Source of the DNA: an uncultured Clostridia bacterium
Lineage (GTDB): Bacteria > Bacillota > Clostridia > Christensenellales > UBA1242
Assembly: GCA_947366545.1 (NCBI GenBank)
Contig: CANBAL010000004.1
Span: 29,136 to 93,135 of the forward strand
Direction of reading: 5' to 3'
DNA length: 64,000 nt
Made by a program: the position numbers and the translations under genes. Every line of letters begins with the position of its first letter. Within the stretch, counting starts at the first letter, position 1. The notes below the pieces were generated by a model. It worked only from the letters and a program-made list of their open reading frames with translations, was not told the origin of the DNA and ran no database searches. Positions 5,979-62,381 of the stretch are shown piece after piece.

Positions 5979-6894
5979 TGGATTTTAACAAAATATTAGA
6001 AAATAAGGAAAATACATTTAATTCAAAGGGCGAAAATGTGCATATTGACAGCCTTATGATTTATGACAACGGACAGCATTTTGAACATTTTTTTAAACCA
6101 GATGGTTTACACGAAATGAGAAGTATCAGCAAGCTTTTTATAGCCCTTGCTTACGGAATTGCCATAGATAGAGGGATGATTTCTCTTGATGAAAAGGTTT
6201 ATCCGCTTTTAAAAGATTTGGTGGACATTGCTACAAAGGGAAATCTTGAAAAGATAAAGGAGTGGAAGATTAAACATCTTTTAACTTATACTTGTGGCTA
6301 TGCAGAACAGATGTTTTCTGAAAAATTTATCAAAAATGTAAAAGACAACAATCATTTGAATTATGTTTTAAATTACCCTATAACTATGCGGGGGGGGAGA
6401 AGTATACTTACAATAATGCTGATATCTTTTTGCTTTCCGTATACTTTCAAGAAAAGTTTAATGAGAATATCAAAGACTTTATAGTTGGAGAAATCTTTAA
6501 ACCTTTAGGAATAGAGGAATATATTTGGGAAAATTATGGAAAATATTGTCCTGCTGGCACGGGACTATATATTTCACACCATGACCTCTTTAAGGTTGGA
6601 CTTTTAATTTTAAATAAGGGAAATTATGAAGGGCAACAATTAATTTCTAAAAAATATGTTGAAAAGATGTGCTCATGTAGACTAAAAACGCCTTACGCAG
6701 TTAAGCCAGCAAGAGTGTTGCCAAAGGAAGGCGTTGGTTATGTAATGCATATTTCACGAGATGGATACTCATTTAAAGATGGAACAAATGGGCAGTATTT
6801 AATTGTGAATTTCAAGAAAAAACAACTTATCACAATACTTGCAAGCGAAAGTGAAATGAGTTATGTGACCGAAATTTTAAGAGGCGAGATTTAA
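5978..6894 (+). pseudogene. Beta-lactamase-family serine hydrolase, interrupted by a frameshift in a G8 tract
   Basis: ORFs 5978-6484 and 6430-6894 are two halves of one protein. The SxxK motif (SISK) is in the first half. Just after the tract, in the second frame, come GEKYTYNNADIFLL (YxN motif). Adding one G to the run at 6390-6397 joins the frames. Confidence 0.75.
6390..6397 (+). repeat. G8 homopolymer tract inside the serine hydrolase gene
   Basis: The sequence reads directly as atgc-GGGGGGGG-agaag, and this is the frameshift point. Confidence 0.95.
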
Positions 6895-6910
6895 ATTTAT
6901 TGAAAAAACC

Positions 6911-6939
6911 TTTACTTTTTTAGAAAACAATGATAGAAT
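6911..6939 (+). promoter_or_regulatory. Sigma-A promoter (extended -10) of the S-box/metK unit
   Basis: TTTACT (6911-6916), a 17-nt spacer ending in TGa, then TAGAAT (6934-6939). The predicted start falls at the 5' edge of the riboswitch P1 helix. Confidence 0.5.
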
Positions 6940-6943
6940 ATAA

Positions 6944-7068
6944 CTATCCATAAAGAGTGTGCGAGGGACAGCCCCATTGACCACACAGCAACCTGTCAGG
7001 GTTTTCAAAAAATTTATTTTTAAATTTTGGGGAAGAGATAAGGTGCTAAAGGCTGAATGATGGGTGGA
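6944..7068 (+). promoter_or_regulatory. SAM (S-box, SAM-I-like) riboswitch aptamer
   Basis: The conserved core elements appear in order: AAAGAG, GAGGGAC, GCCCC, TTGA, GCAACC and GGTGCTAAA. P1 pairs ATCCAT (6946-6951) with ATGGGT (7060-7065). The element sits directly upstream of metK. Confidence 0.75.
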
Positions 7069-7085
7069 TTTGATTGCTAAATTTT

Positions 7086-7110
7086 ACCCATCGATTTCGA
7101 TGGGTTTTTC
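7086..7110 (+). terminator. Riboswitch-controlled intrinsic terminator
   Basis: Hairpin CCCATCG (7087-7093) / CGATGGG (7098-7104) followed by TTTTT. The 5' arm can instead pair with GATGGGT at 7059-7065, which is the P1 3' strand, forming an antiterminator. Confidence 0.75.
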
Positions 7111-7153
7111 TTTGCTCTCTTTATGGAAATTTATTTTTATAGGAGAGGAAAAA

Positions 7154-8239
7154 ATGAAAAAATTTATTACATGTGAGTCGGTGGGAATTGGGCACCCAGA
7201 TAAAACCTGCGACTATTTAGCAGACGCATTTTTGGATGAGGCGTTAAAGAGTGACCCACAAAGCCAAATGGCTGTGGAGTGTGCCATAAAAAATGACAAA
7301 CTTTTTATCTATGGTGAGGCCACAACTAAGGCAAAGATAGACTACGAAAAAATTGCCAGAGAGGTCTTAAAAGACATAGGCTATACAAACACTTTTAAGA
7401 TAATTAAAGAAATAAGTGAGCAAAGTCCTGATATTAGGCAGGCTGTGGTGAAGAGCAATTTATGTGCCAATGATCAAGGTATGGTGTACGGCTATGCCAC
7501 AAATGAAACGCCGGAGTTTATGCCGTTGCCACTTGTTATTGCACACAAGATTATGAGGAGATATGAGGATTTTCGCAAGGAAAGTGATAAGTTTTATGCA
7601 GATGCAAAATGTCAAGTGACGGCGGTGTATGAAGATGATAAACCTATAGAGATAGACACCGTACTTATAAGCGTATCACATAGTAGTGAGGTGAATTATG
7701 GCGATATTTTGCGAGAGATAAAAGAAAAGGTATTGAATGGCGCGCTTAGTGATTATAAAAATTTAATAACACAAAACACCAAGTATTTGATTAATCCAAG
7801 TGGAAAATTTACCATTTGGGGAAGTTTTGGTGACAGTGGTTGCGTAGGGCGTAAAATTGTTGTTGATACCTATGGCGGTGTAGGGCGTGTAGGCGGCGGA
7901 TGTTTCAGTTCTAAAAACGCGACAAAGGTGGACAGGTCTGGTGCTTATTACGCAAGATATGTTGCAAAAAATATAGTAGCACATGGCTTTTGTGACAGGT
8001 GTGAGGTGTGCATTTCTTATGCTATTGGACTAGAAAAGCCTATTGCAATTAATATTGAGTGTTTTGGCACAAACAAGGCTACACAGGAGACTATTCAAGA
8101 ATATGTAGACAAAAACTTTGATTTTACATTGGAGAATATGATAAGAGAACTAGATTTATTAAAGCCGATATACAAGGCGACTGCTTGCTATGGACATTTT
8201 GGCAGAAAAGAATTTAGTTGGGAGAGAATAAAAGATTAG
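7154..8239 (+). CDS. metK: S-adenosylmethionine synthetase
   Basis: The real start is the ATG at 7154, after the RBS AGGAGAGG. The listed 7064 start lies inside the riboswitch. Motifs include ESVGIGHPDK, GDSG and the GGGCFSSKNATKVDRSGAY loop. Confidence 0.9.
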   Translation: MKKFITCESVGIGHPDKTCDYLADAFLDEALKSDPQSQMAVECAIKNDKLFIYGEATTKAKIDYEKIAREVLKDIGYTNTFKIIKEISEQSPDIRQAVVKSNLCANDQGMVYGYATNETPEFMPLPLVIAHKIMRRYEDFRKESDKFYADAKCQVTAVYEDDKPIEIDTVLISVSHSSEVNYGDILREIKEKVLNGALSDYKNLITQNTKYLINPSGKFTIWGSFGDSGCVGRKIVVDTYGGVGRVGGGCFSSKNATKVDRSGAYYARYVAKNIVAHGFCDRCEVCISYAIGLEKPIAINIECFGTNKATQETIQEYVDKNFDFTLENMIRELDLLKPIYKATACYGHFGRKEFSWERIKD

Positions 8240-8344
8240 TGCGTAATATCAATAATTAAGGCCATAATTTTATAAATTTCTACTTTACATTTATGAATTT
8301 TTGTGATATAATTCGTTAGAAATTAAAAATTGAGGTGAAGTGTT

Positions 8345-8542
8345 ATGATGATTGAACCATCTATTGATGTACTTGTAAGCAAAACTGGCGGTAACAGATA
8401 TGTGCTTTGCAGCGTGGTTTCTAAGCGCGCAAAGGAAATTGAAAGCGTAAGAAGGCTTGAACTTGCTGACCAAGATAAAAAAGCAATCAGTATTGCTTGT
8501 GAAGAGATTGCTGAAGGTAAAGTAAAACCAAGTGCTTTTTAA
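8345..8542 (+). CDS. rpoZ: RNA polymerase omega subunit
   Basis: 65 aa. The N-terminus IEPSIDVLVSKTGGNRYVLCSVVSKRAKEI is typical of RpoZ. Confidence 0.8.
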   Translation: MMIEPSIDVLVSKTGGNRYVLCSVVSKRAKEIESVRRLELADQDKKAISIACEEIAEGKVKPSAF

Positions 8543-8611
8543 TGACAAAAGTAAAATAATGTGGTAAAATCTATTGTGTAAGCAATAGATTTTTTGTTTA
8601 AAGGAGGGAGG

Positions 8612-10786
8612 GTGTACGCTGAAGTAATCATTGACCAAGATGCCAAGGCACTTGATAAAGTGTTTGAATATATTGTACCAGATGATTTGCCTGCACGCGT
8701 AGGTATGCGTGCTATTGTGCCTTTTGGTGCGAGGTATATTCAAGGCTTTATTGTTGCCTTAAAAGAAAACTGCGATTATGATAAAAGCAAATTGCGTGCC
8801 ATTTCCTCTCTAGTTGAGGACTTTTCTGCAATAAAACCTGAAATGCTTTCACTTATGAAGTTTATGGCGGAAAAGTATCATTTGAAACTTGCTTCTATTT
8901 TAAGATTATTCTTGCCAAGTGAGATGAGGGAAGGCAAGGTTAAAGAACTTTTTATTACAAAGTATATTCTAAATAGTGAGGCTGATACTACATTATCAAA
9001 ATCAGCAAAAAAACAACAGGAAATTGTAGATTATTTAAAAGAAAATCTTTCTGCCACCTCAAGCGAACTTAGTGAAAAGTTTGGCGCGAGTGCGGTGAAA
9101 GCACTGGCTGAGAAAGGGATTATACTAAAACAAAAAGAGCAGATAAATCGCACCCCTTGGATTATGCAAGAGGGATTTAAAAAAGTGCAGTTAAATCCTA
9201 TGCAGCAAAATGCGGTGGACACTATACGCGAAAACAAAACCTATCTACTTCATGGTGTGACGGGCAGTGGTAAGACCGAGGTGTATATGCACCTTATTGA
9301 GAAAGAACTTTCGAAAGGCAAAAATGCGATTATGCTTGTGCCTGAAATTTCGTTGACACCTCAGATTATGGCAAACTTTAAGTCGCGATTTGGGGACAGC
9401 GTTGCACTTCTTCATAGCGGGCTTTCTGCGGGGGAACGCTTTGATGAATGGAAAAGGCTTTTTTCTGGGCAGGCACGCATTGCCATTGGTGCAAGGTCTG
9501 CAATTTTTGCTCCTCTTGAAAACTTAGGAATAATCATTATTGATGAAGAGCATGAGCAAAGTTATATTTCCGAGTCTAATCCAAGATACAACACACATGA
9601 TATTGCAACCTTTAGGGCAAAGTATAATGCTTGTCCATTACTTCTTGGCAGTGCTACGCCAAGTGTGGAGAGTTACGAAAAGGCGAAGAAGGGGGAGTAC
9701 ACTTTAATTGAACTTCCAGTGCGAGCCAACGGCAAAGATATGCCAAAGATACAAATTATTGATATGATAAATGAACTGCGGGCGGGAAACACAGGAATCT
9801 TCTCTTCGCAGCTTGTAAGTGACCTTGCAAAAGTGATTAACGACAAAAAGCAAGCTATGATTTTTATCAACAGGCGAGGATATGCCTCTTTTATGAGATG
9901 CCGTGAGTGTGGGTACATTGCAAAGTGTAGCGATTGCGATGTCAGCCTTGTATACCACAGGGAAGACAACCGCCTTAAATGCCATTATTGTGGCAAGCAG
10001 TTTAAGGTGCTTGACAAATGTCCACAGTGTGGCAGTGAGAATATTAAGCAGGGTGCGGTTGGCACAGAGAAGGTGGTGCAGGAACTTCGCAACATCTTTC
10101 CAAATGTGAAGGTCTTACGAATGGACAATGACACAACCTCCACCAAAAATGCACATCAAAAAATACTTAATGAATTTAAAAATACCCTTCCTGCTATCCT
10201 TGTGGGAACACAAATGATTGCAAAAGGGCATGATTTTGAAAATGTTGTGCTTGTGGGTATTGTGGATGCCGACCAAAGCCTATATCAAACGGACTACCGC
10301 AGCACCGAGAGAACCTTCCAACTTATCACGCAGGTTTCTGGGCGTGCGGGGAGAAGTCAAGATGAGGGAAAGGTTGTGCTTCAAACTTATGCACCAAGAC
10401 ATTATGTATACAAATTTGCATCCAACTATGATTACAAAGGTTTCTTTAAAAAAGAGGAGAATATACGCGAGGTTGCCTCTTTTCCACCTTTTTCTCGGAT
10501 TATACGCGTACTTTTTGCAGATACCGATGAAAATTATGTGCGAGACCTCTTGAAATTGTGTTATAATAATGCTATAAAATTAAAGGAAAAATATCCAAAT
10601 GAGATAATCTATATGGATGCCATGAAATCACCAATCAAGCGAATGCAAAACAAATTCCGCTATCAAATTCTTATGAGGGTAAGACTTGAGTATGCCGACG
10701 AAATAGAAAAAGATTTGTTTGAGATTGTGGACAAGGCGTCCAAAAACAGCGTATTTTTTGAGATTAATCCGCAAAATTTAAGTTAG
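8612..10786 (+). CDS. priA: Primosomal replication-restart helicase PriA
   Basis: Walker A GVTGSGKTEVY, a DEEH box, and the Cys4 zinc region CRECGYIAKCSDCDVSLVYHREDNRLKCHYCG...CPQCG. The likely start is the GTG at 8612, after the RBS AAGGAGGGAGG. The ORF track start is 8594. Confidence 0.9.
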   Translation: MYAEVIIDQDAKALDKVFEYIVPDDLPARVGMRAIVPFGARYIQGFIVALKENCDYDKSKLRAISSLVEDFSAIKPEMLSLMKFMAEKYHLKLASILRLFLPSEMREGKVKELFITKYILNSEADTTLSKSAKKQQEIVDYLKENLSATSSELSEKFGASAVKALAEKGIILKQKEQINRTPWIMQEGFKKVQLNPMQQNAVDTIRENKTYLLHGVTGSGKTEVYMHLIEKELSKGKNAIMLVPEISLTPQIMANFKSRFGDSVALLHSGLSAGERFDEWKRLFSGQARIAIGARSAIFAPLENLGIIIIDEEHEQSYISESNPRYNTHDIATFRAKYNACPLLLGSATPSVESYEKAKKGEYTLIELPVRANGKDMPKIQIIDMINELRAGNTGIFSSQLVSDLAKVINDKKQAMIFINRRGYASFMRCRECGYIAKCSDCDVSLVYHREDNRLKCHYCGKQFKVLDKCPQCGSENIKQGAVGTEKVVQELRNIFPNVKVLRMDNDTTSTKNAHQKILNEFKNTLPAILVGTQMIAKGHDFENVVLVGIVDADQSLYQTDYRSTERTFQLITQVSGRAGRSQDEGKVVLQTYAPRHYVYKFASNYDYKGFFKKEENIREVASFPPFSRIIRVLFADTDENYVRDLLKLCYNNAIKLKEKYPNEIIYMDAMKSPIKRMQNKFRYQILMRVRLEYADEIEKDLFEIVDKASKNSVFFEINPQNLS

Positions 10787-10795
10787 GAGAAAGGT

Positions 10796-11239
10796 ATGGC
10801 TATTAGAAAAGTAGTAGGAAAGGACGAGGAACTTATTAGAAAGAAAAGCAAGCCGGTTAGGGATTTTGATGAAAACCTTGACCAGCTACTCGATGATATG
10901 TGGGAGACCATGTATGCTTTTGACGGAATGGGACTTGCAGCGGTGCAGGTGGGAATCTTACGCCGTGCCTTTATTATTGATGTGAACGGAAAGAAAATGG
11001 AGTTTATTAATCCAGAGATTTATTATACCGAAGGCGAATGGGTGGAAGAAGAAGGCTGTCTTAGTGTAGGGAAGTTCCATGGCAAGGTGAAAAGACCATA
11101 CAAGATTAAAGTGAAGGCTGTGGACCGATATGGCGACCCTTTTAAACTTGAATGTGAAGGCTGGACGGCAAAGTGCATTTGTCATGAATGCGACCACCTT
11201 GACGGAATACTATTTACAGACAAATTGGAGAAGAAGTAA
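10796..11239 (+). CDS. def: Peptide deformylase
   Basis: 147 aa with motifs GLAAVQVG, EGCLSV and HECDHLDG. Confidence 0.95.
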   Translation: MAIRKVVGKDEELIRKKSKPVRDFDENLDQLLDDMWETMYAFDGMGLAAVQVGILRRAFIIDVNGKKMEFINPEIYYTEGEWVEEEGCLSVGKFHGKVKRPYKIKVKAVDRYGDPFKLECEGWTAKCICHECDHLDGILFTDKLEKK

Positions 11240-12153
11240 TGAAGATTTTGTTTTTAGGTACCCCTCATTTTTCTCGCCTTGTGCTTGAAAAACTTTGTGC
11301 TTCAAAGCATGAGGTGGTTGGGGTGATAACTCAGCCAGATAGACCTTCGGGACGAGGACATAAAATGGTGGCAAGCGAAGTGAAAGAATATGCCCTTTCA
11401 AACAACATACCTGTATATACCTTTGAGCGTGTGAATAGAAGTATGGACGAGGTGAGAAAGATTAATTACGACTACGCCCTTACTGCGTCCTTTGGGCAGA
11501 TACTTTCCTCAGAGTTTTTGGCAAACAGGCCATGTCTCAATGTTCACCCCTCACTTCTTCCAAAGTATCGCGGAGCGACACCTATTCAAACCGCACTTTT
11601 AAACGGGGACAAAGTGACTGGCGTTACCATTATGAAAATGGTGCGCGAGGTAGATGCGGGGGATATTCTGCTGCAAGAAAAATATGACATTTTGGATGAA
11701 GATACCACCGATACGCTTATGGAAAAGCTAGGTGTTATGGGCGGCGAAATGGCCGTGAAGGCTTTTGACCTAATTGAAAGCGGAAAGGCAAAATTTATTC
11801 CACAAGATGCTGAGCAAGCCACCTTTGTGAAGATGATTTCAAAAGAGGACGGCAAGATAGATTTTAACAAAAGTGCGAAAGAGATTGTAAATCAGTTTCG
11901 TGCCTATGGTAGCAAGCCAAGCGTATATTTTAATCTTGGCGAAGATGTGATAAAAGTGGGTGGAGTGAAGGATGCAAGCCTTGAGTTTAGTGGCAAGGCC
12001 GGAGAACTTATTTCCACAAAAAAGAGGCTTATCATTGGCTGCAAAAATGGAGCAGTGGAGATTTTATACGCTCAGGCACCTTCGGGGAAGATGTTAAAAG
12101 CACAAGACTTTTTAAATGGTTACCATTTTAAAGAGGGCGTAAATGCTGAGTGA
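11239..12153 (+). CDS. fmt: Methionyl-tRNA formyltransferase
   Basis: 304 aa with the Fmt N-terminal fold (ILFLGTP...VVGVITQPDRPSGRG, HPSLLPKYRG). It follows def, as in most bacteria. Confidence 0.9.
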   Translation: MKILFLGTPHFSRLVLEKLCASKHEVVGVITQPDRPSGRGHKMVASEVKEYALSNNIPVYTFERVNRSMDEVRKINYDYALTASFGQILSSEFLANRPCLNVHPSLLPKYRGATPIQTALLNGDKVTGVTIMKMVREVDAGDILLQEKYDILDEDTTDTLMEKLGVMGGEMAVKAFDLIESGKAKFIPQDAEQATFVKMISKEDGKIDFNKSAKEIVNQFRAYGSKPSVYFNLGEDVIKVGGVKDASLEFSGKAGELISTKKRLIIGCKNGAVEILYAQAPSGKMLKAQDFLNGYHFKEGVNAE

Positions 12154-13171
12154 TTTATCATTAGAAGAACTGAAAAATTATGTGAATGAAAAGGGGTTGC
12201 CTACTTTTAGAGGCAGTCAAATTTTTGATGCGATTTACAATGGAAAGGCAATTAATGAAATCACAAACCTGCCAAAGCCGTTATTAGAAGAAATTAGCGA
12301 GGAGTACCCTAAATACAAAATTGTAAAAAGATATGAAAGTAAGGACGGCACGAAAAAGTACATAATTGAGTTTTCTGACGGCGAAGTGGTGGAATGCGTG
12401 CTTATGAGTTACAAATATGGCAACACGATTTGTGTTTCCACCCAAGTGGGATGCCGAATGGGTTGTAAGTTTTGTGCCTCTGGACTGAACGGACTTAAAC
12501 GCAATCTATCAAGCGGTGAGATACTTGGACAGGTGCTGCTTGTAAACAAAGATTTGGGTGGCACAGTAAAAGAGCGTAAAATCACCAATATCGTGCTTAT
12601 GGGTAGCGGTGAGCCACTTGACAATTACGACAATGTCATAAAGTTTTTAAGGCTTGTGACAAGCGAAAATGGCTTAAACATAAGTGACCGCAATATCTCG
12701 CTTTCCACCTGCGGGCTTGTGCCAGAAATTTATCGGCTTGCTGACGAAGGGCTTAATATTACTTTAACTATCTCTCTGCACGCACCTAACGACGAGATTA
12801 GGCAAAGAACAATGCCTATTGCAAACAGATATTCTATCAAAGAAATTTTGGATGCTTGCCGAAACTACATAGACAAAACAAAAAGGCGGGTGGCAATCGA
12901 GTATACACTTATAAAGGGTGTAAATGATAGCAAAGTCTGTGCGGAAGAACTTATAAGACTTCTTAAAGGAATGCTATGCCATGTGAACATTATTCCACTT
13001 AATTATGTGAAAGAAAGGGGACTTACTGCTGCTACGCGTAAAGAGGCATATCAATTTGTTGGCCTCTTAGAAAAAGGCGGACTTTCTGCCACCGTGCGCC
13101 GTACCATGGGCGAAGATATTGCAGGCGCCTGCGGGCAACTGAGAAACTCCTACATGAGAGGTGAGGCATGA
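12143..13171 (+). CDS. rlmN: 23S rRNA/tRNA A2503-C2 methyltransferase RlmN (radical SAM)
   Basis: CxxxCxxC motif (CRMGCKFCASG), a C-terminal GxDIxAACGQL-like GEDIAGACGQL, and about 340 aa in length. Confidence 0.9.
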   Translation: MLSDLSLEELKNYVNEKGLPTFRGSQIFDAIYNGKAINEITNLPKPLLEEISEEYPKYKIVKRYESKDGTKKYIIEFSDGEVVECVLMSYKYGNTICVSTQVGCRMGCKFCASGLNGLKRNLSSGEILGQVLLVNKDLGGTVKERKITNIVLMGSGEPLDNYDNVIKFLRLVTSENGLNISDRNISLSTCGLVPEIYRLADEGLNITLTISLHAPNDEIRQRTMPIANRYSIKEILDACRNYIDKTKRRVAIEYTLIKGVNDSKVCAEELIRLLKGMLCHVNIIPLNYVKERGLTAATRKEAYQFVGLLEKGGLSATVRRTMGEDIAGACGQLRNSYMRGEA

Positions 13172-13998: not shown

Positions 13999-13999
13999 G

Positions 14000-14668: not shown

Positions 14669-14895
14669 AGAATGATGACATTGCCGCAAAGTACATCAAA
14701 ATAAGAAAATGTTTGGATGCATTGTGCCTTGCCATCGAGTTTTACTGTAAATACACTTGGATAGACATCTTTTATCACTCCGTTGATGGTGTCTATTTTT
14801 TTACGCCCTCTATTTATATTCATTTCAACGGTTGCACCTTTGAGCGCAGATATCTTTTGTTTGACCTCGTCAAGGCCTAGGGTTACCTTTCTCAT
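14665..14895 (-). CDS. veg: Veg family protein (DUF1021)
   Basis: 76 aa. The segment NRGRKKIDTINGVIKDVYPSVFTVKLD closely matches the B. subtilis Veg core (GGRRK...YPSVF). Its stop overlaps the rpe stop. Confidence 0.8.
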   Translation of the reverse strand: MRKVTLGLDEVKQKISALKGATVEMNINRGRKKIDTINGVIKDVYPSVFTVKLDGKAQCIQTFSYFDVLCGNVIIL

Positions 14896-15007
14896 ATAAT
14901 TCTCCTTGATAAAATATTGCCTTCTTAAAAATTTTTAAACATTTAAGTCATATTTGTCCCCCGTGGCGAGTATGATATACCGATATCGCAATGAGAGGGG
15001 GAATAAA

Positions 15008-16522: not shown

Positions 16523-16525
16523 ATA

Positions 16526-16584: not shown

Positions 16585-16612
16585 TTGACTCCCCCCCCCG
16601 TGGTGTTATTAT
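16585..16612 (+). promoter_or_regulatory. Sigma-A promoter whose spacer contains a C9 tract
   Basis: TTGACT (16585-16590), a 16-nt spacer made of C9 plus GTGGTGT (ending in TGt), then TATTAT (16607-16612). The RBS AAGGAG and the ATG at 16635 follow. Confidence 0.6.
16591..16599 (+). repeat. C9 homopolymer tract in a promoter spacer
   Basis: The sequence reads directly as ttgact-CCCCCCCCC-gtgg. Confidence 0.95.
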
Positions 16613-16634: not shown

Positions 16635-17387
16635 ATGAAAATTAAAACCGCAAAAATATTAAGCGTATTTTTCTTCCTCATATTTGTTATCGCTCTTCCA
16701 CTTGTATGTACCTTTATTCCATACAGGGAGCCAGTACTTATTGAGGCGTCTTTTAATATAGCACCTGCTGAGGGGACAAGTGTGGTGGTGTATGGCGAAC
16801 TTTACAATCCTACAATCGTAACGATTGAAGATTTGGAAATTCAAATCAACTTTTATAATGAAAATGATGAGTTTATCACTACAAAAAAAGTTAATGTAAC
16901 TTTGAATGTTGGTGCTGGACAGACAAAAGAGTTTATTGAGACAATAAATGTTGGCACTGTACTTAATGAGCAGTGCCAGTATGGAGTAGGCGATATACTT
17001 TACACCTATACACAACTTTCTTGGTATCTATATTTCTGCATGGGCATTTGTGCTTACTTTATAACCTTCCTATTACTTGGAAAACAAAAATATTACTTTG
17101 AAGTGAATGGACAGAAGGTGGAGGTGTTTGCATCTTCTTACAAATTAGCCCTTATTGTTGACGGGGAGAAGGTGGCTGAAACTACTCAAAGAAAGGGCAT
17201 TATGCTGGACCTTGAATACAAACTTGGCGAAAGTGAAATTAAGGTGGAGTCTAGAAACCCTATAATCCTTCCTGGGCCAAAGGTGACAATCATGGTTGAC
17301 GGCAGCAAGCCTACAATCACAGATACTAAACAACATGGATTTATTAAGATAGAAAGCAAAAAGAAGGAAAATGAAGTCTTGCAGTAG
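16635..17387 (+). CDS. Hypothetical membrane protein
   Basis: The ATG at 16635 follows a good RBS. The listed 16572 start runs through the promoter. There is an N-terminal TM helix (ILSVFFFLIFVIALPLV), a second TM (WYLYFCMGICAYFITFLLLG), and beta-rich soluble segments. I recognise no family. Confidence 0.6.
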   Translation: MKIKTAKILSVFFFLIFVIALPLVCTFIPYREPVLIEASFNIAPAEGTSVVVYGELYNPTIVTIEDLEIQINFYNENDEFITTKKVNVTLNVGAGQTKEFIETINVGTVLNEQCQYGVGDILYTYTQLSWYLYFCMGICAYFITFLLLGKQKYYFEVNGQKVEVFASSYKLALIVDGEKVAETTQRKGIMLDLEYKLGESEIKVESRNPIILPGPKVTIMVDGSKPTITDTKQHGFIKIESKKKENEVLQ

Positions 17388-50718: not shown

Positions 50719-51814
50719 ATGATTTTAGATAATATTAAAGAAAAACTGAATACAAATAAAGAAGACTTAGCCTTCTTAAAGGAGTGTCTTTGACCCGACT
50801 GGGCTTGAAGGAAAATTAAAAGAATTAAAGGTAAAGCAGTCGCAAGAAGATTTTTATGCTGACCAAAAACTTGTGCTTAAAGTTGGTAAAGAGATTAAAG
50901 AGGTGGAGCGTAAACTTAACCTATTGAAAGACCTTGAAGGACAGCTTAATGACTGCTACGCGCTTATTGAAATGATAGAGGAAAGTGGCGAAGAGGAACT
51001 TGGCAAGGAACTTGAAGAGATGACAGCGAAACTCTCACAAGAACTAGCAAATGCCAAGATTGACACGCTACTTAGTGGAAAATATGACGGCTATGACGCC
51101 ATAATCACCATACATGCTGGCGCGGGTGGTACTGAGGCTCAGGACTGGGCGGATATGCTTTATCGTATGTACTGTATGTATTGCGACAAACAGGGTTTCA
51201 AGCGAAAGGTGTTGGATGCCCTTGACGGTGACGAGGCAGGTTTAAAGGTGGTGACTTTTGAAGTGAGTGGCACAAATGCATATGGCTATTTAAAAGCAGA
51301 GAAGGGTGTGCATCGTTTGGTGCGAATTTCGCCTTTTGATTCAAACGCACGCCGACACACAAGTTTTGCAAGCGTGGAGGTAATGCCAAAAATTGAGGAG
51401 GCTCCTGACATTGAGATAAGGGCGGAGGACCTTAAAATTGACACCTATCGTGCATCTGGTGCGGGCGGACAGCACATTAATAAAACTGATAGTGCGGTGC
51501 GTATTACCCACATTCCAACGGGGATTGTGGTTGCATGCCAGACAGAGCGAAGTCAGGTGCAAAACAAGGAAACTGCAATGAGTATGCTTTATTCTCGTCT
51601 TGTAGAAAAACAAGAAAGTGAAGAGGCTGAAAAACTTGCTTCAATCCGCGGAGAGATTAAAAAAATCGAATGGGGAAGCCAAATCCGCAGTTATGTCTTT
51701 TGTCCTTACACGCTGGTTAAAGACCATAGAACGGGATATGAGGACAGTAATATTCAAAGCGTCATGGACGGAAATATTCAAGAATTTATAAACGATTATC
51801 TAAAAAAGGCGTAA
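50719..51814 (+). CDS. prfB: Peptide chain release factor 2, requiring a programmed +1 frameshift
   Basis: Frame 0 runs from 50719 to 50790 (MILDNIKEKLNTNKEDLAFLKECL) and ends at the TGA at 50791-50793 within AAGGAG-TGT-CTT-TGA-C. The +1 frame runs from 50792 to 51814 and carries the SPF (RISPFDS) and GGQ (GAGGQHINK) motifs. Confidence 0.92.
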
Positions 51815-51837
51815 AAAACACTAAAATCGAGGCAAAT

Positions 51838-54815: not shown

Positions 54816-54841
54816 CTTGTACTTAATCTTATGATATAATA
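54813..54841 (+). promoter_or_regulatory. Sigma-A promoter (extended -10) of the 158-aa orphan
   Basis: TTGACT (54813-54818, overlapping the U32 stop codon), a 17-nt spacer ending in TGa, then TATAAT (54836-54841). Confidence 0.6.
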
Positions 54842-54856
54842 CAAATATAGGAGGAA

Positions 54857-55333
54857 ATGATTATGGAACTTACGGATAACAAGAAAGGGCAAAGCGTTGA
54901 AGAATTTATTAATAAAGCTATTAAGTATGATTATTCAGCAGATGCAATTATTAGTAGGCTAGTAAATATAGATGTCAGCGAGGTAATTGAAGGAAGCGAA
55001 AGCATGAAAAAACTTTCAAAGTTTGTGCTTGATAAAATAGAAGATATTGCAATTACCAATCGTTTAGGAGGTAATTTGTCAGACATACTACTTAGTTTAA
55101 CACATGTAGCAAAAAGTTATGAACTTCTTGCAAAGTATGAGGACGCTATATTGTCAATGAGAATGGGATATGCTCTTGAACAACCTCGCTCTGATTCAAA
55201 TGAATTATGTAAAGAGTATAGAGATAAAATGTGTGCCAGTGTTATTAACGTAATAGATGCAGTGCGAAAGGAAGAGGGGCTACTTGAAATGGTAACTGAA
55301 AAGCCTCAAACAAGTGAGGACGAGCAAGATTAA
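54857..55333 (+). CDS. Hypothetical protein (158 aa)
   Basis: RBS AGGAGG. The start is 54857 or 54863. It looks helical with an acidic C-terminus, and I recognise no domain. Confidence 0.6.
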   Translation: MIMELTDNKKGQSVEEFINKAIKYDYSADAIISRLVNIDVSEVIEGSESMKKLSKFVLDKIEDIAITNRLGGNLSDILLSLTHVAKSYELLAKYEDAILSMRMGYALEQPRSDSNELCKEYRDKMCASVINVIDAVRKEEGLLEMVTEKPQTSEDEQD

Positions 55334-55384
55334 AATTTAACAACAAAAAATTTCAAAAAAATTTAAAATAGTTGGCAAAATTTG

Positions 55385-55413
55385 TTGACTATTTTTTTGT
55401 AATTGCATATACT
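55385..55413 (+). promoter_or_regulatory. Sigma-A promoter of the hrcA-grpE-dnaK-dnaJ operon
   Basis: TTGACT (55385-55390), a 17-nt spacer, then TATACT (55408-55413). It sits immediately upstream of CIRCE. Confidence 0.7.
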
Positions 55414-55417
55414 ATTG

Positions 55418-55444
55418 CTAGCACTTAGGTTGCAAGAGTGCTAA
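55418..55444 (+). promoter_or_regulatory. CIRCE operator (HrcA binding site)
   Basis: cTAGCACTt, 9 nt (aggttgcaa), GAGTGCTAA. The consensus is TTAGCACTC-N9-GAGTGCTAA. Confidence 0.9.
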
Positions 55445-55502
55445 AAAGTCGAAAAATAGATTCACTCCGCGTTGGTCGGAATGACAGAAGAGAGGGTGAG
55501 AA

Positions 55503-56507
55503 ATGGTAATTACAGAGCGTAAAAAGCAGATATTATGCATGGCAGTCGAGGAATATATCAAAGACTGCGCACCTATCACAAGTGGTGGGATTAAAGATAA
55601 AGGGCTTGACTGTTCAACTGCGACACTGCGAAATGAACTGAACGCACTTGAGGCTATGGGCTTTTTAAAACAACTGCATACCTCTGGGGGCAGGGTGCCA
55701 ACCGTGCAAGGATATCGCTTTTATGTAGAAAACCTTTTGAGTGGGATTAAAGCCACTGATAAGGAACTGGAAAGCGTGAGAGAACTTATCTCATCACGAA
55801 CAAACAGCCTAAATGAAATCATTTCTGGTATCGCAAAGATAGTAAGTCACGCAACGAATTATCCTACCGTGGTTATGATGGATGGAATGGAAAACCTTAT
55901 TTTAAGTGAATTTAAGATTATTCCACTACTTGAAAACAAACTTATGGTGCTTATCGGTACAATGGCTGGCTATATCACAAACACCCTTGATATATCTGCC
56001 ACTGGGCAGGAGTGCCAAGATGCCTCAAACTACTTAACCAAAAACTTTAAGGGTGCCACCATTGGCTATATGCTTGACAACATGCCATATCTTCAAGAAG
56101 GAATGAGCGGGGAAATCAAGGCTTTTCAAAACATTGTCGATTCCCTAATTGGTGGACTTAAGAAAATTAACAGCCAAAAACTTTTAGGGGTATCGCGTGA
56201 GGGTAGTGTGAAACTGCTGGAAGATGGCAAAAGTGTTGAGGAGGCCAAAAAAGTCCTTTCCATGCTTGATGACAAGGAAAAACTTGAAAAATCACTGGAG
56301 CTTAGTGGTAAAGGTGAAATTGAGGTTTCGCTTGCTGAGGAAGAGGAAGGCAAGGAATGTTCGGTGGTTAAAGCACCTATCTTAGTCCAAGGGCGGCAAC
56401 TGGCATCCATTGGAGTGATTGGACCTCAGAGAATGGACTACTCGGGAATAGCATCAGCACTTAAAGTCGTGATAGACGAACTTAGAGAAATAAAAGGGGA
56501 TGATTAA
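55503..56507 (+). CDS. hrcA: Heat-inducible transcription repressor HrcA
   Basis: N-terminal winged helix (TERKKQILCMAVEEYIKDCAPITSGGI...STATLRNELNALEAMGFL). It is the first gene after CIRCE. Confidence 0.92.
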   Translation: MVITERKKQILCMAVEEYIKDCAPITSGGIKDKGLDCSTATLRNELNALEAMGFLKQLHTSGGRVPTVQGYRFYVENLLSGIKATDKELESVRELISSRTNSLNEIISGIAKIVSHATNYPTVVMMDGMENLILSEFKIIPLLENKLMVLIGTMAGYITNTLDISATGQECQDASNYLTKNFKGATIGYMLDNMPYLQEGMSGEIKAFQNIVDSLIGGLKKINSQKLLGVSREGSVKLLEDGKSVEEAKKVLSMLDDKEKLEKSLELSGKGEIEVSLAEEEEGKECSVVKAPILVQGRQLASIGVIGPQRMDYSGIASALKVVIDELREIKGDD

Positions 56508-57098
56508 GTGTCAAAGAATGAAGAATTAGAAAAAGAATGTAACTGCACAGAAGATTGCCACTGCGGGAAACATTGCGAATGTGATAGTGAAAACAAATGT
56601 AGTGACAACTGTCAGTGCGGTTGCGATTGCGAGGAAGAATGCGAATGCGGTGAAAATTGCGAATGCGCTTGCGAAGAGGAAAAAGACAAATATCTCCTCC
56701 TTGCCCAGCAGGTTCAAGCAGATTTTGATAACTTCCGTCGCCGGTCCCGTGAGGAAATAGAGCGGGCGAGAACCAGCGGACAGGTGTCGGTGATAGAGGC
56801 GTTTCTGCCCTGCCTTGATACCTTTAAAGAGGCGAAAAAGTTAATCACCGACGAAAGCGTACTTCAAGGCGTTGAGATGATTGAAAATAAAATTCTTTCA
56901 GCCTTAAAAGAACTTGGAGTGGAAAAAATTGAAAGTGTTGGGCAGGTTTACAGCCCACATCTCCACAACGCAATAGCGGTTATGAGAGATGAAAGCAAAG
57001 AAAATGATATCATCTTGGAAGAATTCCAAGCAGGATATAAATACAAAGACAAAGTAATAAGATATGCGAAAGTCATAGTCAATAAAAAGGAGGGTTAA
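56508..57098 (+). CDS. grpE: Nucleotide exchange factor GrpE with a Cys-rich N-terminal extension
   Basis: The GrpE core ([13 protein letters not shown] ... [13 protein letters not shown]) is preceded by residues 11-55, which contain 16 Cys in CxC/CxxxC spacing. It uses a GTG start after AAAGGGGA. There is no in-frame ATG, GTG or TTG between this start and the core. Confidence 0.9.
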
Positions 57099-57102
57099 AA
57101 TT

Positions 57103-58929
57103 ATGAGTAAAATTATTGGAATTGACTTAGGAACAACAAATTCATGTGTGGCAGTGATGGAAGGTGGCAAACCAACCGTTATTGCAAATGCAGAGGGAGA
57201 CAGAACAACTCCATCTGTTGTCGCTTACACCAAAGAGGGTGAGAGACTTGTCGGCAAGGTTGCAAAAAGACAGGCAATCGTAAACGCTGACAATACAATT
57301 CAGTCTATCAAAAGAGAGATGGGCACAAACTACAAAGCAAAGCTTAATGGCAAGGAATATTCTCCACAAGAGATTTCTGCTATGGTGCTTGGAAAACTTA
57401 AGGCTGATGCAGAAAGTTATCTTGGTGGCAGTGTAACACAAGCGGTTATCACAGTACCAGCCTACTTTAATGACAGCCAGCGTCAAGCAACCAAGGATGC
57501 CGGCAAGATTGCTGGGCTTGAAGTGCTTAGAATTATCAACGAGCCAACCGCAGCCGCTCTTGCTTATGGACTTGACAAGGGGGAGAACTCAAACCAAAAG
57601 ATTTTAGTTTATGACCTTGGTGGTGGTACATTTGATGTATCTATTCTTGAAATCGGTGACGGCGTGTTTGAAGTACTTTCTACAAATGGTAACACTCGTC
57701 TTGGCGGAGATGACTTTGATAACAGAATTATCGACCTTCTTGTAGAAGAATTTAAGAAGACAAACAACATTGATCTTTCAAGCGATCGTCTTGCAATGCA
57801 AAGACTTAAAGAAGCAGCAGAAAAAGCAAAGATTGACCTTTCTGCAACTCCAAAAACTACAATCTCTCTTCCATTCATTTCAGCGGATGCAACAGGCCCT
57901 AAACATATGGAATATGAGCTTACTCGTGCAAAATTTGATGCAATCACAGAGGATCTTGTTAAGGAAACTATCGACTGCACAGTAAGAGCGCTTAAAGATG
58001 CTGGACTTAACAAAGGACAAATTGACAAGGTTGTACTTGTTGGTGGCTCTACTCGTATCCCAGCAGTATTTGAGGCCGTTAAAAACTTTACTGGCAAGGA
58101 TCCATACAAAGGTATAAACCCAGATGAATGTGTTGCTGTTGGTGCCGCAATTCAAGCCGGCGTACTTGGCGGAGAGGTTAAGGATGTTCTTCTTCTTGAT
58201 GTAACTCCACTTTCTCTTGGGATTGAAACCCTTGGCGGAGTGTTTACAAAACTTATTGAAAGAAACACTACAATTCCTACAAAGAAATCACAAGTGTTCT
58301 CAACCGCAGTAGATAATCAACCTGGCGTTGACATTCATGTCCTTCAAGGTGAGCGTGAATTTGCTGCTCAAAACAAGACACTTGGCAGATTCCAACTTAC
58401 AGACATTCCACCTGCACCAAGAGGAGTACCTCAAATTGAAGTTACTTTTGATATTGATGCAAATGGTATTGTTAATGTTTCAGCAAAAGATTTAGGCACT
58501 AATAAAGAGCAGAAGATTACAATCACAGCATCTTCAAACCTTAAAGATGAAGATATTGAAAAGGCAATCAAAGAGGCAGAGGAACACGCTGAGGAAGATA
58601 AGAAGCGTAAAGAGTTTGTTGAAACCAAAAATCAAGCCGACAATATGGTTTACAGTATTGAAAAAATGCTTAAAGAAAATGGCGACAAACTATCTGCCGA
58701 TGACAAGAAGAAACTTGAAGAAGCAGTAGAAAAAGCAAAGAAAGACTTTGAAAGCACTGACCTTGATACAGTTAAGAAAGGCCTTGAAGAACTTACAAAT
58801 GTATCAAACGAAGTATTCACAAAGATGTATCAAGCCGCAGGTGCTGGTGCTAATGGAGCAGGTGCAGCTGGCGGTAACAACGGCGGAAACGATGGCAACC
58901 CAGAAGTTGTAGTGGATGATAACAAATAA
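57103..58929 (+). CDS. dnaK: Molecular chaperone DnaK (Hsp70)
   Basis: [26 protein letters not shown] and [10 protein letters not shown], 608 aa. Confidence 0.98.
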
Positions 58930-58930
58930 A

Positions 58931-59400
58931 ATGAAAACATTAATTATCGTTGATATGCAAAAGGGCTTTATTAATAAAAATAATGAATTTTTAGTAAAAA
59001 ATATCGAAAATTTATTAAAAAATCATAAATTTGATAGAGTTTTTGCAACAAAGTTTGTAAACAACTTAGATAGTCAATATGTAAAATTATTAAATTTTGA
59101 TAGAATGTGTGATGCAAAGTCACAAGAATTTGCTGTGACTTTGCCCGATACTGCGGTGATTTTGGAGAAAACCTCTTATGCCCTGCCAACTGAATTTGTG
59201 GGGGGGGAACAAAGGAGGTTTTCCTCTGTGGCACTGATTATGACGCCTGTGTGCTAGCCATTGCATATCAATTATTTGATAAGGGTATTCAGCCCCGTAT
59301 AATTATGGACTGCACAGGTAGTGCATCAAATAATCCACTTGATAAAAATGAGTTTAAAAAACTTTGCCGAAGAAATTTTGGCGAAAAATCGATAGTATAA
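58931..59400 (+). pseudogene. Isochorismatase/cysteine hydrolase family gene, frameshifted in a G8 tract
   Basis: The N-terminus MKTLIIVDMQKGF is the typical beta1-DxQ pattern. After the tract, the other frame reads TKEVFLCGTDYDACVLAIAYQLFDKGIQPRIIMDCTGS (catalytic Cys motif) and ends at the TAA at 59398-59400. One extra G restores a single ORF. The alternative start is 58916. Confidence 0.75.
59200..59207 (+). repeat. G8 homopolymer tract inside the isochorismatase-family gene
   Basis: The sequence reads directly as tttgt-GGGGGGGG-aacaaagg. Confidence 0.95.
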
Positions 59401-59408
59401 GGACAATT

Positions 59409-60533
59409 ATGGCAAACAAAGACTATTATTCAATTTTAGGTGTTGAAAAGACGGCGGGGGAGGACGAAATTAAGTCCGCCTATCGTCGCATGGCAAAAAA
59501 ATATCACCCTGATTTAAATAAAACTCCTGAGGCGGCTGAAAAGTTTAAGGAAGTCAACGAGGCTTACTCAGTGCTTAGCGACCCTCAAAAGAAGGCTAAT
59601 TATGATCAGTTTGGCTCAGCCGATGGCCCACAATTCAGTGGTGGTCAAGGCGGGGCTGGCTTTGGCGACTTCTTTGGTGGTGGCGGTGGTTTTGGTGATT
59701 TCTTTAGTGACATCTTTTCTGCCTTTGGTGGCGGAGCAAGAGGAGCGCGCGCAACTCAGCGTGGGCAAGATATAAATGCATCAATGAATCTTTCCTTTGA
59801 AGAGGCTTGCTTTGGCTGTGAGAAGAATATCACTGTAGGACGAATTGAAACTTGCAATGCTTGTTCTGGCACAGGTGCAAGAAATGGAAAAGATTATTCC
59901 GTTTGCCCAGACTGTCATGGTAGTGGCAGAGTACGCTTCCAGCAAAACACCATGATGGGCACTATTGTGCGTGAGGGCGAATGTCCTAAATGTGGTGGCA
60001 GCGGTAAAATTATCCGTGAAAAATGCAGTGTATGTAATGGTAAAGGCTATCAAAGAGTCAACAAGACAATTAAAGTTAAAGTACCAGCAGGTATTGATGA
60101 TGACCAAACACTTCGTATGCGTGGCGAAGGAAATGCTCCAATGGGCGAGGGAACAAATGGTGACCTTAATATACGCATAAAGGTGGAGAAACACAAGTTG
60201 CTTGTAAGAAAGGGCAGTGATATCTGTCTTGACCTATATCTTCCATTTACAACCACTTTGCTCGGCGGTAAGGTGGAAATCCCAACACTTGACGGGGATT
60301 ACACATTAAATATTCCGGAGCTTACTGCAAGTGGCACTGTGATGAGGATTAAAAATAAGGGTGTAAAGATACTTAATCGTGAGTCGCGAGGTGATATGCT
60401 TGTGACAATCAAAGCGGAAGTGCCAAAAAGTCTTGATAAACAGACTAAGGCAAAGATAGAAGACCTTGCATCATGTTTTAATACCAGTTCCTATGCAAAA
60501 TATGATAAATTTTTAAAAAATAAGAAAAAATAG
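59409..60533 (+). CDS. dnaJ: Molecular chaperone DnaJ
   Basis: The ATG at 59409 opens [12 protein letters not shown]. It has a J-domain HPD, a Gly/Phe region and four CxxCxGxG zinc motifs. The listed 59364 start lies within the upstream pseudogene. Confidence 0.95.
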
Positions 60534-60536
60534 TGA

Positions 60537-60998
60537 CTATTCATCACTATTTTTTTGATTTTTAAGGATTTTTAGGGTTGATTTATCTATATTTTCATTA
60601 AGTTTATTAATTGAATTATAAATTTGTGCGCGACTAAGAACCTTTGCAATTGCATTTAAATAAAGGAAAACTGTAGCAATTGTAGTGCTTACTCCAATCA
60701 TTAATAAAATTATTGATGTTATGGCAATTGGACATGCTAATTGAGGTGTCTCTGCATAAGAAATCGCTGTACCTATAAGACAGGAGACGGCGAAAACAAA
60801 AATAAATGCTATTATTAGAATGCTAATTATAAATATAATTCTCAATCTACGAAGAGAATTGACATCATTTGTTTCTAGATTATAATCTGAGTTTTGCGTT
60901 ATTTCAGTTTCATATTCTTTTGTTGAAATAGTTGAAATTATGCAAGTAATAATAGTACACAATAAAGAAAGAAGAAAAAATATATAAAAATTATTCAT
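60537..60998 (-). CDS. Hypothetical small membrane protein (153 aa)
   Basis: Three predicted TM helices and an RBS AAGGAG. It is driven by the C9-containing promoter. I recognise no family. Confidence 0.6.
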   Translation of the reverse strand: MNNFYIFFLLSLLCTIITCIISTISTKEYETEITQNSDYNLETNDVNSLRRLRIIFIISILIIAFIFVFAVSCLIGTAISYAETPQLACPIAITSIILLMIGVSTTIATVFLYLNAIAKVLSRAQIYNSINKLNENIDKSTLKILKNQKNSDE

Positions 60999-61018
60999 TC
61001 ATAATCTCCTTGCCTTTA

Positions 61019-61045
61019 ATTATACTCGGGGGGGGGAGTTGTCAA
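61019..61045 (-). promoter_or_regulatory. Sigma-A promoter whose spacer contains a C9 tract (minus strand)
   Basis: The minus strand reads TTGACA, then act-CCCCCCCCC-gag, then TATAAT. Both hexamers are perfect but the spacer is only 15 nt. Confidence 0.6.
61028..61036 (-). repeat. C9 (G9 on the plus strand) homopolymer tract in a promoter spacer
   Basis: The plus strand reads directly as tatactc-GGGGGGGGG-agttgtcaa. Confidence 0.95.
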
Positions 61046-61071
61046 GTATTTTTCGAAAATAGTAGAAAAAG

Positions 61072-61100
61072 TTGATGAATCTTTTATTATGTGATAAAAT
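61072..61100 (+). promoter_or_regulatory. Sigma-A promoter (extended -10) of rnhB, probably giving a leaderless mRNA
   Basis: TTGATG (61072-61077), a 17-nt spacer ending in TGa, then TAAAAT (61095-61100). The rnhB ATG begins 7 nt after the -10, and no SD is present. Confidence 0.5.
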
Positions 61101-61106
61101 TTTAAT

Positions 61107-61688
61107 ATGTTAGATTACGAAAAAAAATACAAAGGCAAAGTTATTGCTGGAATTGATGAGGCAGGGAGAGGCCCACTTGCGGGGCCGGTGGTTTGTGCTT
61201 GCGCCGTTATGCCAATGGACAATATAATCGAGGGGGTTAATGACAGCAAAAAACTTTCCGCTAAAAAACGGGAAGAGTTATATGACAAAATAAAAAAAGT
61301 GGCAATAAGTTACTCCATTGTGGAGGTAGACGAGAAAACCATTGACAAGATAAACATTTTGCAGGCGACAAAACTTGGTATGAAAAAAGCACTTGAAACT
61401 TTGAGTGTGAAGCCAGACATCGTGCTTATTGATGCCGTCAAAATTGATTGCCGTGTGCCACAAGAAAACATAATAAAAGGGGATGCATTATCTTATAATA
61501 TTGCTGCGGCCTCCATTCTCGCGAAAGTGTATCGAGATAGGATGATGGTGGAACTTGACAAAAAGTATCCTCAATATGGGTTTGCAAAACATAAGGGCTA
61601 CGGAACAAAGGCACATATTGAAGCACTTAAAAAATACGGTAAATGTGAACTGCACAGAGATACATTTATCAAAAAGTTTGTGAAATAA
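61107..61688 (+). CDS. rnhB: Ribonuclease HII
   Basis: GIDEAGRGPLAGPVV catalytic motif, DSKKLS, 193 aa. Confidence 0.92.
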   Translation: MLDYEKKYKGKVIAGIDEAGRGPLAGPVVCACAVMPMDNIIEGVNDSKKLSAKKREELYDKIKKVAISYSIVEVDEKTIDKINILQATKLGMKKALETLSVKPDIVLIDAVKIDCRVPQENIIKGDALSYNIAAASILAKVYRDRMMVELDKKYPQYGFAKHKGYGTKAHIEALKKYGKCELHRDTFIKKFVK

Positions 61689-61706
61689 AAATAACGGCAG
61701 ATGCCG

Positions 61707-62381
61707 TTATTTTTTATATTTTCTGTTTACTTCAATTTCACTTATTTCTATATTTTTTGGTACCTGCAATGTAAACAACATTACTTTAGCCATATCTTCT
61801 GGGTCTATCCACGCATTTGGATCGGCTATTTTTTCACCATTATATTTTTCGTTAAATTTGGTGTTCATTCCGCCCGCGTTGAATTGAATTACACGACAAG
61901 GTGTCTTTTTAAGTTCCGCACCAATATTGAGACTTGTTCCTCTTATCGCCCATTTGGAGGTCGTGTAACCGACTTGATTGAGTGGGCCAGATTTTAGACC
62001 TACGGTGGAGCCGACATTGATTATATCAGCCTCGTTGGCTTTGATGAGGTCAAATAATTTACTAATAAGGTACATTGGGGCGATACTATTAACTTTCATA
62101 ACTCTTTCAAGTTCATAGTAGGGAGTGTTGTTGGTGGGTTGAATACATGGCACACCAGCACAGTTTATTAGGGCGTCAAATTTGCTGTATTTTTCTGCTA
62201 TAATTTCGCACGCCTTATTCATAGATTTTTCATTTAATAAATCACATTTAATAAATTCGCAAGGGTAATCGGGTTTTGTTCTGCAAAGGGCTATGACCTC
62301 AAATCCCCCCCCCGCATTGCAGAGTTTGCCGAAGGCCTTGCCAAGGCCATCACTGGCACCAGTTAAAATAATTCTTTTCAT
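61707..62381 (-). CDS. Short-chain dehydrogenase/reductase (SDR)
   Basis: The ATG at 62381 follows AAGGAGAAAAAG. It has the TGASDGLG cofactor motif, NAG and a YTTSK catalytic motif. It contains an in-frame G9 tract that encodes GGG. Confidence 0.8.
   Translation of the reverse strand: MKRIILTGASDGLGKAFGKLCNAGGGFEVIALCRTKPDYPCEFIKCDLLNEKSMNKACEIIAEKYSKFDALINCAGVPCIQPTNNTPYYELERVMKVNSIAPMYLISKLFDLIKANEADIINVGSTVGLKSGPLNQVGYTTSKWAIRGTSLNIGAELKKTPCRVIQFNAGGMNTKFNEKYNGEKIADPNAWIDPEDMAKVMLFTLQVPKNIEISEIEVNRKYKK
62305..62313 (-). repeat. G9 (C9 on the plus strand) homopolymer tract in-frame within the SDR gene
   Basis: The minus strand reads aat gcg ggg ggg gga ttt (NAGGGF), about 23 codons from the start. 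Confidence 0.95.

Follow-up and report, generated by a model that had tools for sequence, protein, structure and literature searches.

Five long G/C tracts in a chromosomal segment of an uncultured Clostridia bacterium as probable slipped-strand contingency loci

Why should an AT-rich bacterial chromosome that otherwise keeps its runs of G and C short carry five such runs of 8 or 9 nucleotides (nt), two of them breaking the genes that hold them? The question arises from a 64-kb stretch of an uncultured Clostridia bacterium (contig CANBAL010000004.1, positions 29,136 to 93,135; hereafter the window, with a GC content of 39.1%). Here, we examine the five tracts, their genomic setting and their counterparts in related genomes, and conclude that they probably form a multi-locus set of slipped-strand simple-sequence-repeat (SSR) contingency loci, that is, a phase variation system. 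We refer to them as T1 to T5, and call a coding tract ON when it leaves the reading frame intact and OFF when it breaks it.

6390-6397, + strand: T1, G8 inside a serine hydrolase gene, codons 138-140; OFF state
16591-16599, + strand: T2, C9 directly abutting the -35 hexamer of a promoter
59200-59207, + strand: T3, G8 in codons 91-93 of an isochorismatase-family gene; OFF here, with G9 or G6 being ON
61028-61036, - strand: T4, sense C9 (G9 in + strand letters) inside the -35/-10 spacer of a promoter
62305-62313, - strand: T5, sense G9 (C9 in + strand letters) of a short-chain dehydrogenase/reductase (SDR) gene, in frame as gcg ggg ggg gga (AGGG, codons 22-25); ON state

A complete count of G/C runs in the window returned 43 runs of 5 nt, one of 6 nt (3003-3008, within dnaE), none of 7 nt, two of 8 nt and three of 9 nt. 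A preliminary description of this DNA had named five runs as the only ones longer than 6 nt, three of them (T2, T4 and T5) at 9 nt, and the count reproduces its list exactly in position and length. Its statement that the tracts are unexpected for the base composition also holds: a Bernoulli model on that composition, solved analytically, predicts 0.36 runs of at least 8 nt against the five observed (Poisson P for at least five, ~4e-5), and extrapolation from the window's own short-run spectrum predicts ~0.0005 long runs. G runs up to 5 nt have a chance of about 0.21-0.27 of being one base longer, and this chance falls to 0.024 beyond 5 nt; among the shorter runs of at least 5 nt, 1 of 44 attains 6 nt (2.3%), compared with roughly 26% for shorter G runs. 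Because five runs of 8-9 nt coexist with none of 7 nt and with a sharp drop after 5 nt, the window holds two run populations, one of ordinary short runs ending at 5-6 nt and a separate class of 8-9 nt. We also observed that G/C runs of 6-7 nt are strongly depleted across the window, and medium-length runs appear to be selected against or unstable in the host genome. A repeat scan of the whole window detected no further microsatellite-type repeat.

The placement of the long tracts is equally distinctive. Three lie inside accessory open reading frames (ORFs; T1, T3 and T5) and two in promoters (T2 and T4). GGG accounts for 21% of the glycine codons in the window, yet it is the repeated codon in each of the three coding tracts, all of which have G on the sense strand. 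The surrounding DNA is core chromosome, with whiA, dnaE, six tRNAs, an S-adenosylmethionine (SAM) riboswitch with metK, priA, def, fmt, a mur/fts cell-division cluster, spoIIGA-sigE-sigG, spoIVA, prfB, hrcA-grpE-dnaK-dnaJ, rnhB and rsmE. From this gene content we assign the host to the spore-forming Clostridia, as had been assumed beforehand. Every tract belongs to a small accessory insert of one or two genes between core genes, and the corresponding slots in relatives hold other genes or nothing. No tract gene matched a defense system in PADLOC.

In the mechanism that we propose, a G/C run of 8-10 nt would gain or lose a base during replication far more often than ordinary sequence does. In the coding tracts (hydrolase, isochorismatase and SDR) each such event would toggle the reading frame, with G9 (or G6) ON and G8 or G10 OFF; in the genome as sequenced T1 and T3 are OFF and T5 is ON. 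In the promoter tracts, the length sets the distance between the -35 and -10 elements of near-consensus sigma-A promoters that drive stand-alone genes for small membrane proteins. A C9 tract gives T2 a spacer of 16 nt, C8 one of 15 nt and a degenerate allele one of 13 nt; at T4, C9 yields 15 nt and C10 yields 16 nt, and C11 would be required for the canonical 17 nt. Such changes would grade or switch transcription. Since all five target genes are accessory inserts of one or two genes between core genes, the set would behave like the variable "phasome" of a host-adapted bacterium, with switching that would be frequent and reversible, would alter expression and may have adaptive value.

To compare tract lengths among relatives we read, in addition to the 64 kb of host genome, about 100 kb of related DNA, all from consensus assemblies reached through protein-cluster look-ups and homology searches, and assigned species from the nucleotide identities of dnaJ and sipL. 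The window's strain is represented a single time in the protein collection, and exact look-ups of its DnaJ and of the 240-aa SDR form in Logan gave no match. Species A is the window itself and is 82-87% identical to the other species in these two genes. Species B comprises ERZ13632111 (L081, L095), SRR35209590 (L082) and JGI 3300006217 (L092, L093, L096), which are mutually 94-99% identical (dnaJ 94-97%, sipL 99.3%), and species C comprises ERZ14235889 and ERZ14235892 (L094, L097, L098). The T2 tract site is common to species A and B, and the T3 and T4 sites to all three. Moreover, close strains of species B differ in tract length within conserved flanks at each of these sites: G9 and G6 at T3, C9 and C10 at T4, C8 and CCCTCC at T2. 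The preliminary description had proposed this comparison, in which absence of the tracts from relatives would have spoken against a dedicated set of loci; instead, three of the five are conserved in position and polymorphic in length, which favors phase variation.

The coding tracts lie in the following genes:

5978-6894, + strand: T1 gene, beta-lactamase-fold serine hydrolase (PF00144, E 1.5e-14), 305 amino acids (aa) when repaired
58931-59400, + strand: T3 gene, isochorismatase family (PF00857, E 8e-13), 156 aa when repaired to G9
61707-62381, - strand: T5 gene, SDR (PF00106, E 1.9e-27), 224 aa

Translation shows that both broken genes are mended by the identical change from G8 to G9, as had been claimed for them, giving the proteins of 305 and 156 aa. 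Of the three coding tracts, the in-frame AGGG of the SDR gene is the only one near a 5' end; in the two broken genes the tract is found at 45% and 59% of the length.

T3 is the sole tract for which both ON and OFF alleles were observed; T1 is known only as OFF and T5 only as ON. The T3 gene is embedded in the heat-shock operon as hrcA-grpE-dnaK-[T3]-dnaJ, between the dnaK stop at 58929 and the dnaJ start at 59409. It is broken by G8 in the window, while contig L094 of species C carries G9 within the same flanks and an intact 156-aa gene whose product is 91% identical to the repaired window protein. In species B, both L093 (G9) and L081 (G6) have intact genes, and their proteins differ by one glycine only; in L082 the gene is replaced by a pyrophosphatase gene. 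Downstream of the frameshift, the window and L094 differ by nine synonymous and four non-synonymous codons among 63, and this synonymous excess gives the out-of-frame stretch of T3 the appearance of a coding region that purifying selection still maintains. The ON state places the T3 stop codon 8 nt ahead of the dnaJ start and the OFF state terminates translation about 150 nt upstream, and by this earlier termination the OFF state may also reduce dnaJ expression.

Insertions between dnaK and dnaJ vary among genomes: the window (58931-59400) has only the isochorismatase gene, species B and C (L081 6800-8281) have it together with a DUF4932 gene, and L082 (1828-2187) has the pyrophosphatase gene; in the outgroup L001 the gap is empty. 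A scan of metagenome contigs with an isochorismatase alignment returned only homologues of at most 44% identity among the matches listed.

As sequenced, the T1 gene reads CGG GGG GGG AGA and reaches a stop at 6484. Adding one G yields RGGEKYTYNN and a frame open to 6894, with about 166 codons free of stops in the correct frame after the shift. The repaired protein can be aligned end to end with homologues of 303-314 aa at up to 68% identity, and in this alignment the tract site is a variable loop directly before the conserved GEKYxYNN. Because of these stop-free codons and the synonymous excess at T3, we conclude from the sequences that neither broken gene is an old pseudogene and that their inactivation is either very recent or reversible. 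The start of the T1 gene overlaps the stop of a 182-aa gene (5430-5978), and the gene sits in a variable slot bounded by the six-tRNA cluster (4788-5356) on one side and the metK SAM riboswitch (6945-7066) on the other. We did not find it in any relative reached, including the nearest by MetK (86%). In the window this slot contains the 182-aa gene, of no known function, and the T1 hydrolase gene, and in species B an unrelated 161-aa membrane-protein gene (L092 1-1140; L095 1295-1780). The best NCBIfam match of the T1 protein, 3-succinylated cholic acid synthase (NF045925, E 2e-23), scored 82 bits against a cutoff of 800 bits and was not used to assign function; this resemblance, far below the cutoff, is a possible hint of an acyl-transfer rather than a beta-lactamase role.

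The T5 gene occupies the variable slot between rnhB and rsmE and was likewise not found in any relative reached, which hold other genes there. Where the window (61701-62429) has the SDR, species B (L081 10614-12448) has genes for proteins of 181, 108 and 188 aa and a helix-turn-helix regulator; the 188-aa gene gives a faint ribonuclease (barnase-like) match.

Both C9 tracts that had been placed in promoter spacers are indeed found there, T2 between TTGACT and TATTAT and T4 between TTGACA and TATAAT:

16585-16612, + strand: T2 promoter; TTGACT, C9 + GTGGTGT (16-nt spacer with a TG extended -10), TATTAT
16635-17387, + strand: T2 gene; membrane protein of 250 aa carrying an FxLYD domain (NF038353, 24.5 bits; cutoff, 23)
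61019-61045, - strand: T4 promoter; TTGACA, ACT + C9 + GAG (15-nt spacer), TATAAT; hexamers match the consensus at 12/12 positions
60537-60998, - strand: T4 gene; predicted membrane protein of 153 aa, in divergent orientation to rnhB

A promoter scanner scored the T2 hexamers at 10/12 plus the TG, the hexamers being defined by consensus matches only. The T2 promoter lies 23 nt upstream of the start codon, and the gene, with a promoter and a terminator to itself, forms a stand-alone insert between sipL and spoIIR. Its orthologue in species B has 245 aa. There, L096 reads TTGACT-C8-AGTATGA-TATAAT with a 15-nt spacer, and in L095 the tract is interrupted (CCCTCC) and the spacer shortened to 13 nt, although the T2 flanks of the two are identical and their sipL genes 99.3% identical. 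The entire T2 module is missing from species C.

The T4 promoter was read directly from the sequence, since the scanner requires a spacer of 16-18 nt and hence did not list it. Its tract is C9 in the window, L081 and L094 and C10 in L082, giving the latter a 16-nt spacer; apart from this base, L081 and L082 do not differ across about 175 nt. The T4 module is missing from L093. Profile searches gave no reliable family match for the T4 protein. We further observed that L081 and L082 retain the promoter core of the window (-35, C tract, -10) across the species boundary, and that the downstream genes are not conserved: the 153-aa gene of the window and the 144-aa gene of relatives (region L081 9431-9920) both encode predicted membrane proteins, with no homology detectable by BLASTP (E 0.037).

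Long runs were also counted in other genomes. Around dnaJ in 80 other Clostridia (1.15 Mb) we found one run of at least 8 nt, and none in the 569 kb of that DNA below 45% GC. These loci came from a DnaJ genome scan, whose best match was 66% identical among the matches listed, and served purely as a composition control; in the outgroup with the 66% identical DnaJ, dnaK is followed directly by dnaJ and there are no tract modules. RNase HII homologues of 194 aa (P0034, P0010, P0013) were tried as comparators and set aside, as their sister lineage shares neither synteny nor tracts with the window; 135 kb of that lineage contained no run of at least 8 nt. In 103 kb from the window's own clade, chosen for orthology to tract-bearing regions, there were six runs of at least 8 nt, all at T2, T3 or T4 sites.

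Could the same observations be explained without switching? One alternative is that the tracts are mutational hot spots with no such role, the accessory genes being dispensable and decaying into pseudogenes and the promoter runs neutral. It would account for tract genes that are all accessory and often missing in relatives, for two of three coding tracts being OFF, for the one strain in which T2 has degenerated to CCCTCC and its spacer measures 13 nt, and for target functions atypical of contingency genes. Neutral runs should decay, however, and these have been kept at the same sites across species that are 82-87% identical in dnaJ and sipL, in a genome where G/C runs of 6-7 nt are otherwise strongly avoided. 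Each intergenic run sits exactly inside a core promoter, and the state of the T1 and T3 coding sequences downstream of their tracts suggests an inactivation that is either very recent or reversible. We consider this alternative unlikely.

A further concern is that the tracts are real and genetically stable, with length differences, notably both G8 states, that are sequencing or assembly miscalls of true 9-mers. The same +1 G mends both broken genes and the remaining three tracts are 9 nt, as such under-calling would produce; the relatives, too, are low-coverage metagenome assemblies, and a clade contig from JGI with a split rnhB suggests some error in that dataset. Yet three tracts were called at 9 nt in the very same assembly, so there is no systematic under-call, and lengths in relatives include 6, 8 and 10 nt, with differences larger than one base (G6 against G9, C8 against CCCTCC). 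An independent Logan assembly also contains the truncated products of T1 (168 and 154 aa) and of T3 (113 aa as called) and the in-frame product of T5, and the remaining genes of the 64 kb are all unbroken despite 23 A/T runs of 7-8 nt within ORFs. Nor would miscalling say why the tracts exist, why they are conserved or why they lie where they do. We regard this reading as quite improbable, and of the two explanations initially offered, phase variation and under-calling, the comparison with relatives supports the former, and the predicted G9 allele of T3 is found intact in L094; either G8, taken singly, could nonetheless be a one-off read-level error. In the JGI contig just mentioned (L093, 2807-3387), the core gene rnhB is split into ORFs of 66 and 122 aa by a sequencing error or a real disruption, a point relevant to the reliability of the tract lengths read from it.

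Recoding might instead rescue the G8 alleles at unchanged DNA, through -1 ribosomal frameshifting on a slippery G GGG GGG or through RNA polymerase slippage, giving full-length protein. The zero frame of T1 (CGG GGG GGG AGA) does contain a heptamer of the X XXY YYZ type on which, as judged from the sequence, a -1 slip would produce RGGEKY in the conserved frame. No stimulatory structure was found, none having been sought; orthologues with G9 or G6 need no recoding, and recoding accounts neither for the promoter tracts nor for the differences in tract length. Its effect would at most be a leaky OFF state, which could occur because G GGG GGG is formally slippery, and as a full account it is highly improbable. 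An invertible-promoter switch was also considered and rejected, as no inverted repeats of the inverton type flank T2 or T4; near T2 there is only the sipL terminator hairpin and near T4 one weak pair (15 nt, 80% complementary), and general annotation of the window genes includes no recombinase. The arms of this weak pair (61003-61017 / 61131-61145) are separated by 113 nt and lie on either side of the T4 promoter and the start of rnhB; we judged the pair to be due to chance.

Set against these alternatives, the interpretation of the five tracts as contingency loci is itself weakened by several points. It rests on consensus assemblies, in which neither length heterogeneity within a population nor reversibility was observed. 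The contigs of the relatives have 4-9x coverage (from SPAdes contig names), so that a single difference of one base, such as C9 against C10, could be an error, and the comparison of tract density within the clade is biased by the choice of regions orthologous to tract-bearing ones. T1 and T5 have no orthologue in the relatives reached and each depends on a single observation. No promoter variant seen attains the canonical 17-nt spacer, and the targets are not classic phase-variable functions (surface glycan modification, adhesins, restriction-modification), two of them being cytoplasmic-looking enzymes.

The tracts resemble the poly-G/C loci of Campylobacter jejuni and Helicobacter in being G/C homopolymers (~8-13 nt in those genera) in a low-GC genome with a bimodal run-length spectrum. 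There, as here, the tracts lie mostly in ORFs and some are intergenic, frameshifts turn (here, would turn) genes ON and OFF with 9 nt commonly ON, lengths vary between strains, and the phase-variable gene set is partly core and partly accessory. Unlike that Gram-negative phylum, which is without MutS/MutL-type repair, the host belongs to a spore-forming Clostridia lineage, and in place of glycan-modifying and flagellar targets we find a serine hydrolase, an isochorismatase-family protein, an SDR and two small membrane proteins.

The promoter tracts recall a different class, represented by porA (poly-G), opc and fetA (poly-C) of Neisseria meningitidis and the fim poly-C of Bordetella, in which a homopolymer between -35 and -10 sets the spacer and hence the level of transcription. 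T2 and T4 share the porA/opc-type anatomy, with the C run on the sense strand. Spacers here are 13, 15 and 16 nt and never the optimal 17, and the genes downstream encode small proteins of inner-membrane type in a Gram-positive.

Homopolymer slippage has precedents among Firmicutes and Mollicutes. In Mycoplasma hyorhinis, a poly-A spacer in the vlp promoters controls transcription. In the endospore former Bacillus subtilis, an A8/A9 tract controls the reading frame of swrA (cited in PMC2831843). These are A/T runs, and swrA is a single locus, unlike the several G/C tracts found here in an AT-rich genome that otherwise avoids G/C runs. Phase variation is also established in the class Clostridia itself, in Clostridioides difficile (cwpV, flgB, cmrRST, pdcB/pdcC), where the switches are DNA segments inverted by a recombinase (PMC11868660), in contrast to the tract slippage proposed here. 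For Clostridia the same review treats only recombinase-driven inversions, and it notes that known phasomes include accessory genes that are present or absent among relatives (PMC11868660). The literature that we searched, in which not all subscription journals were covered, contained no report of G/C-tract phase variation in Clostridia, in agreement with the earlier remark that the mechanism has not been characterized for clostridial endospore formers. The finding thus combines the poly-G/C locus type of Campylobacter and Helicobacter with the promoter-spacer type of Neisseria porA/opc, a combination not previously reported for Clostridia in that literature. To our knowledge, almost all documented cases of multi-locus SSR phase variation come from host-adapted pathogens (such as Campylobacter, Helicobacter, Neisseria, Haemophilus and Mycoplasma).

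If the tracts do switch, the phenomenon would extend to a new phylogenetic and ecological setting, an uncultured clade of spore-forming Clostridia, and the loci described here supply concrete targets for read-level tests. It would also follow that tract-bearing "pseudogenes" in the metagenome-assembled genomes of this clade should be neither scored as gene loss nor "polished" away. More tentatively, and with some doubt, we suggest that the genus might carry a dense, genome-wide G/C-tract phasome of ~1 tract per 13-20 kb, on the order of 100 loci per genome and several times the density in Campylobacter. Part of it would be made up of small self-contained modules, each with a tract promoter, a membrane-protein gene and a terminator, that come and go between core genes. 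No multi-locus SSR phase-variation system would have been described before in a commensal endospore former.

Apart from the tracts, we observed that prfB, which encodes release factor 2 (ORF 50873-51814), is preceded by a classical programmed +1 frameshift site, AGGAG..CTT TGA C (50775-50800), and that its short first frame begins at about 50720.

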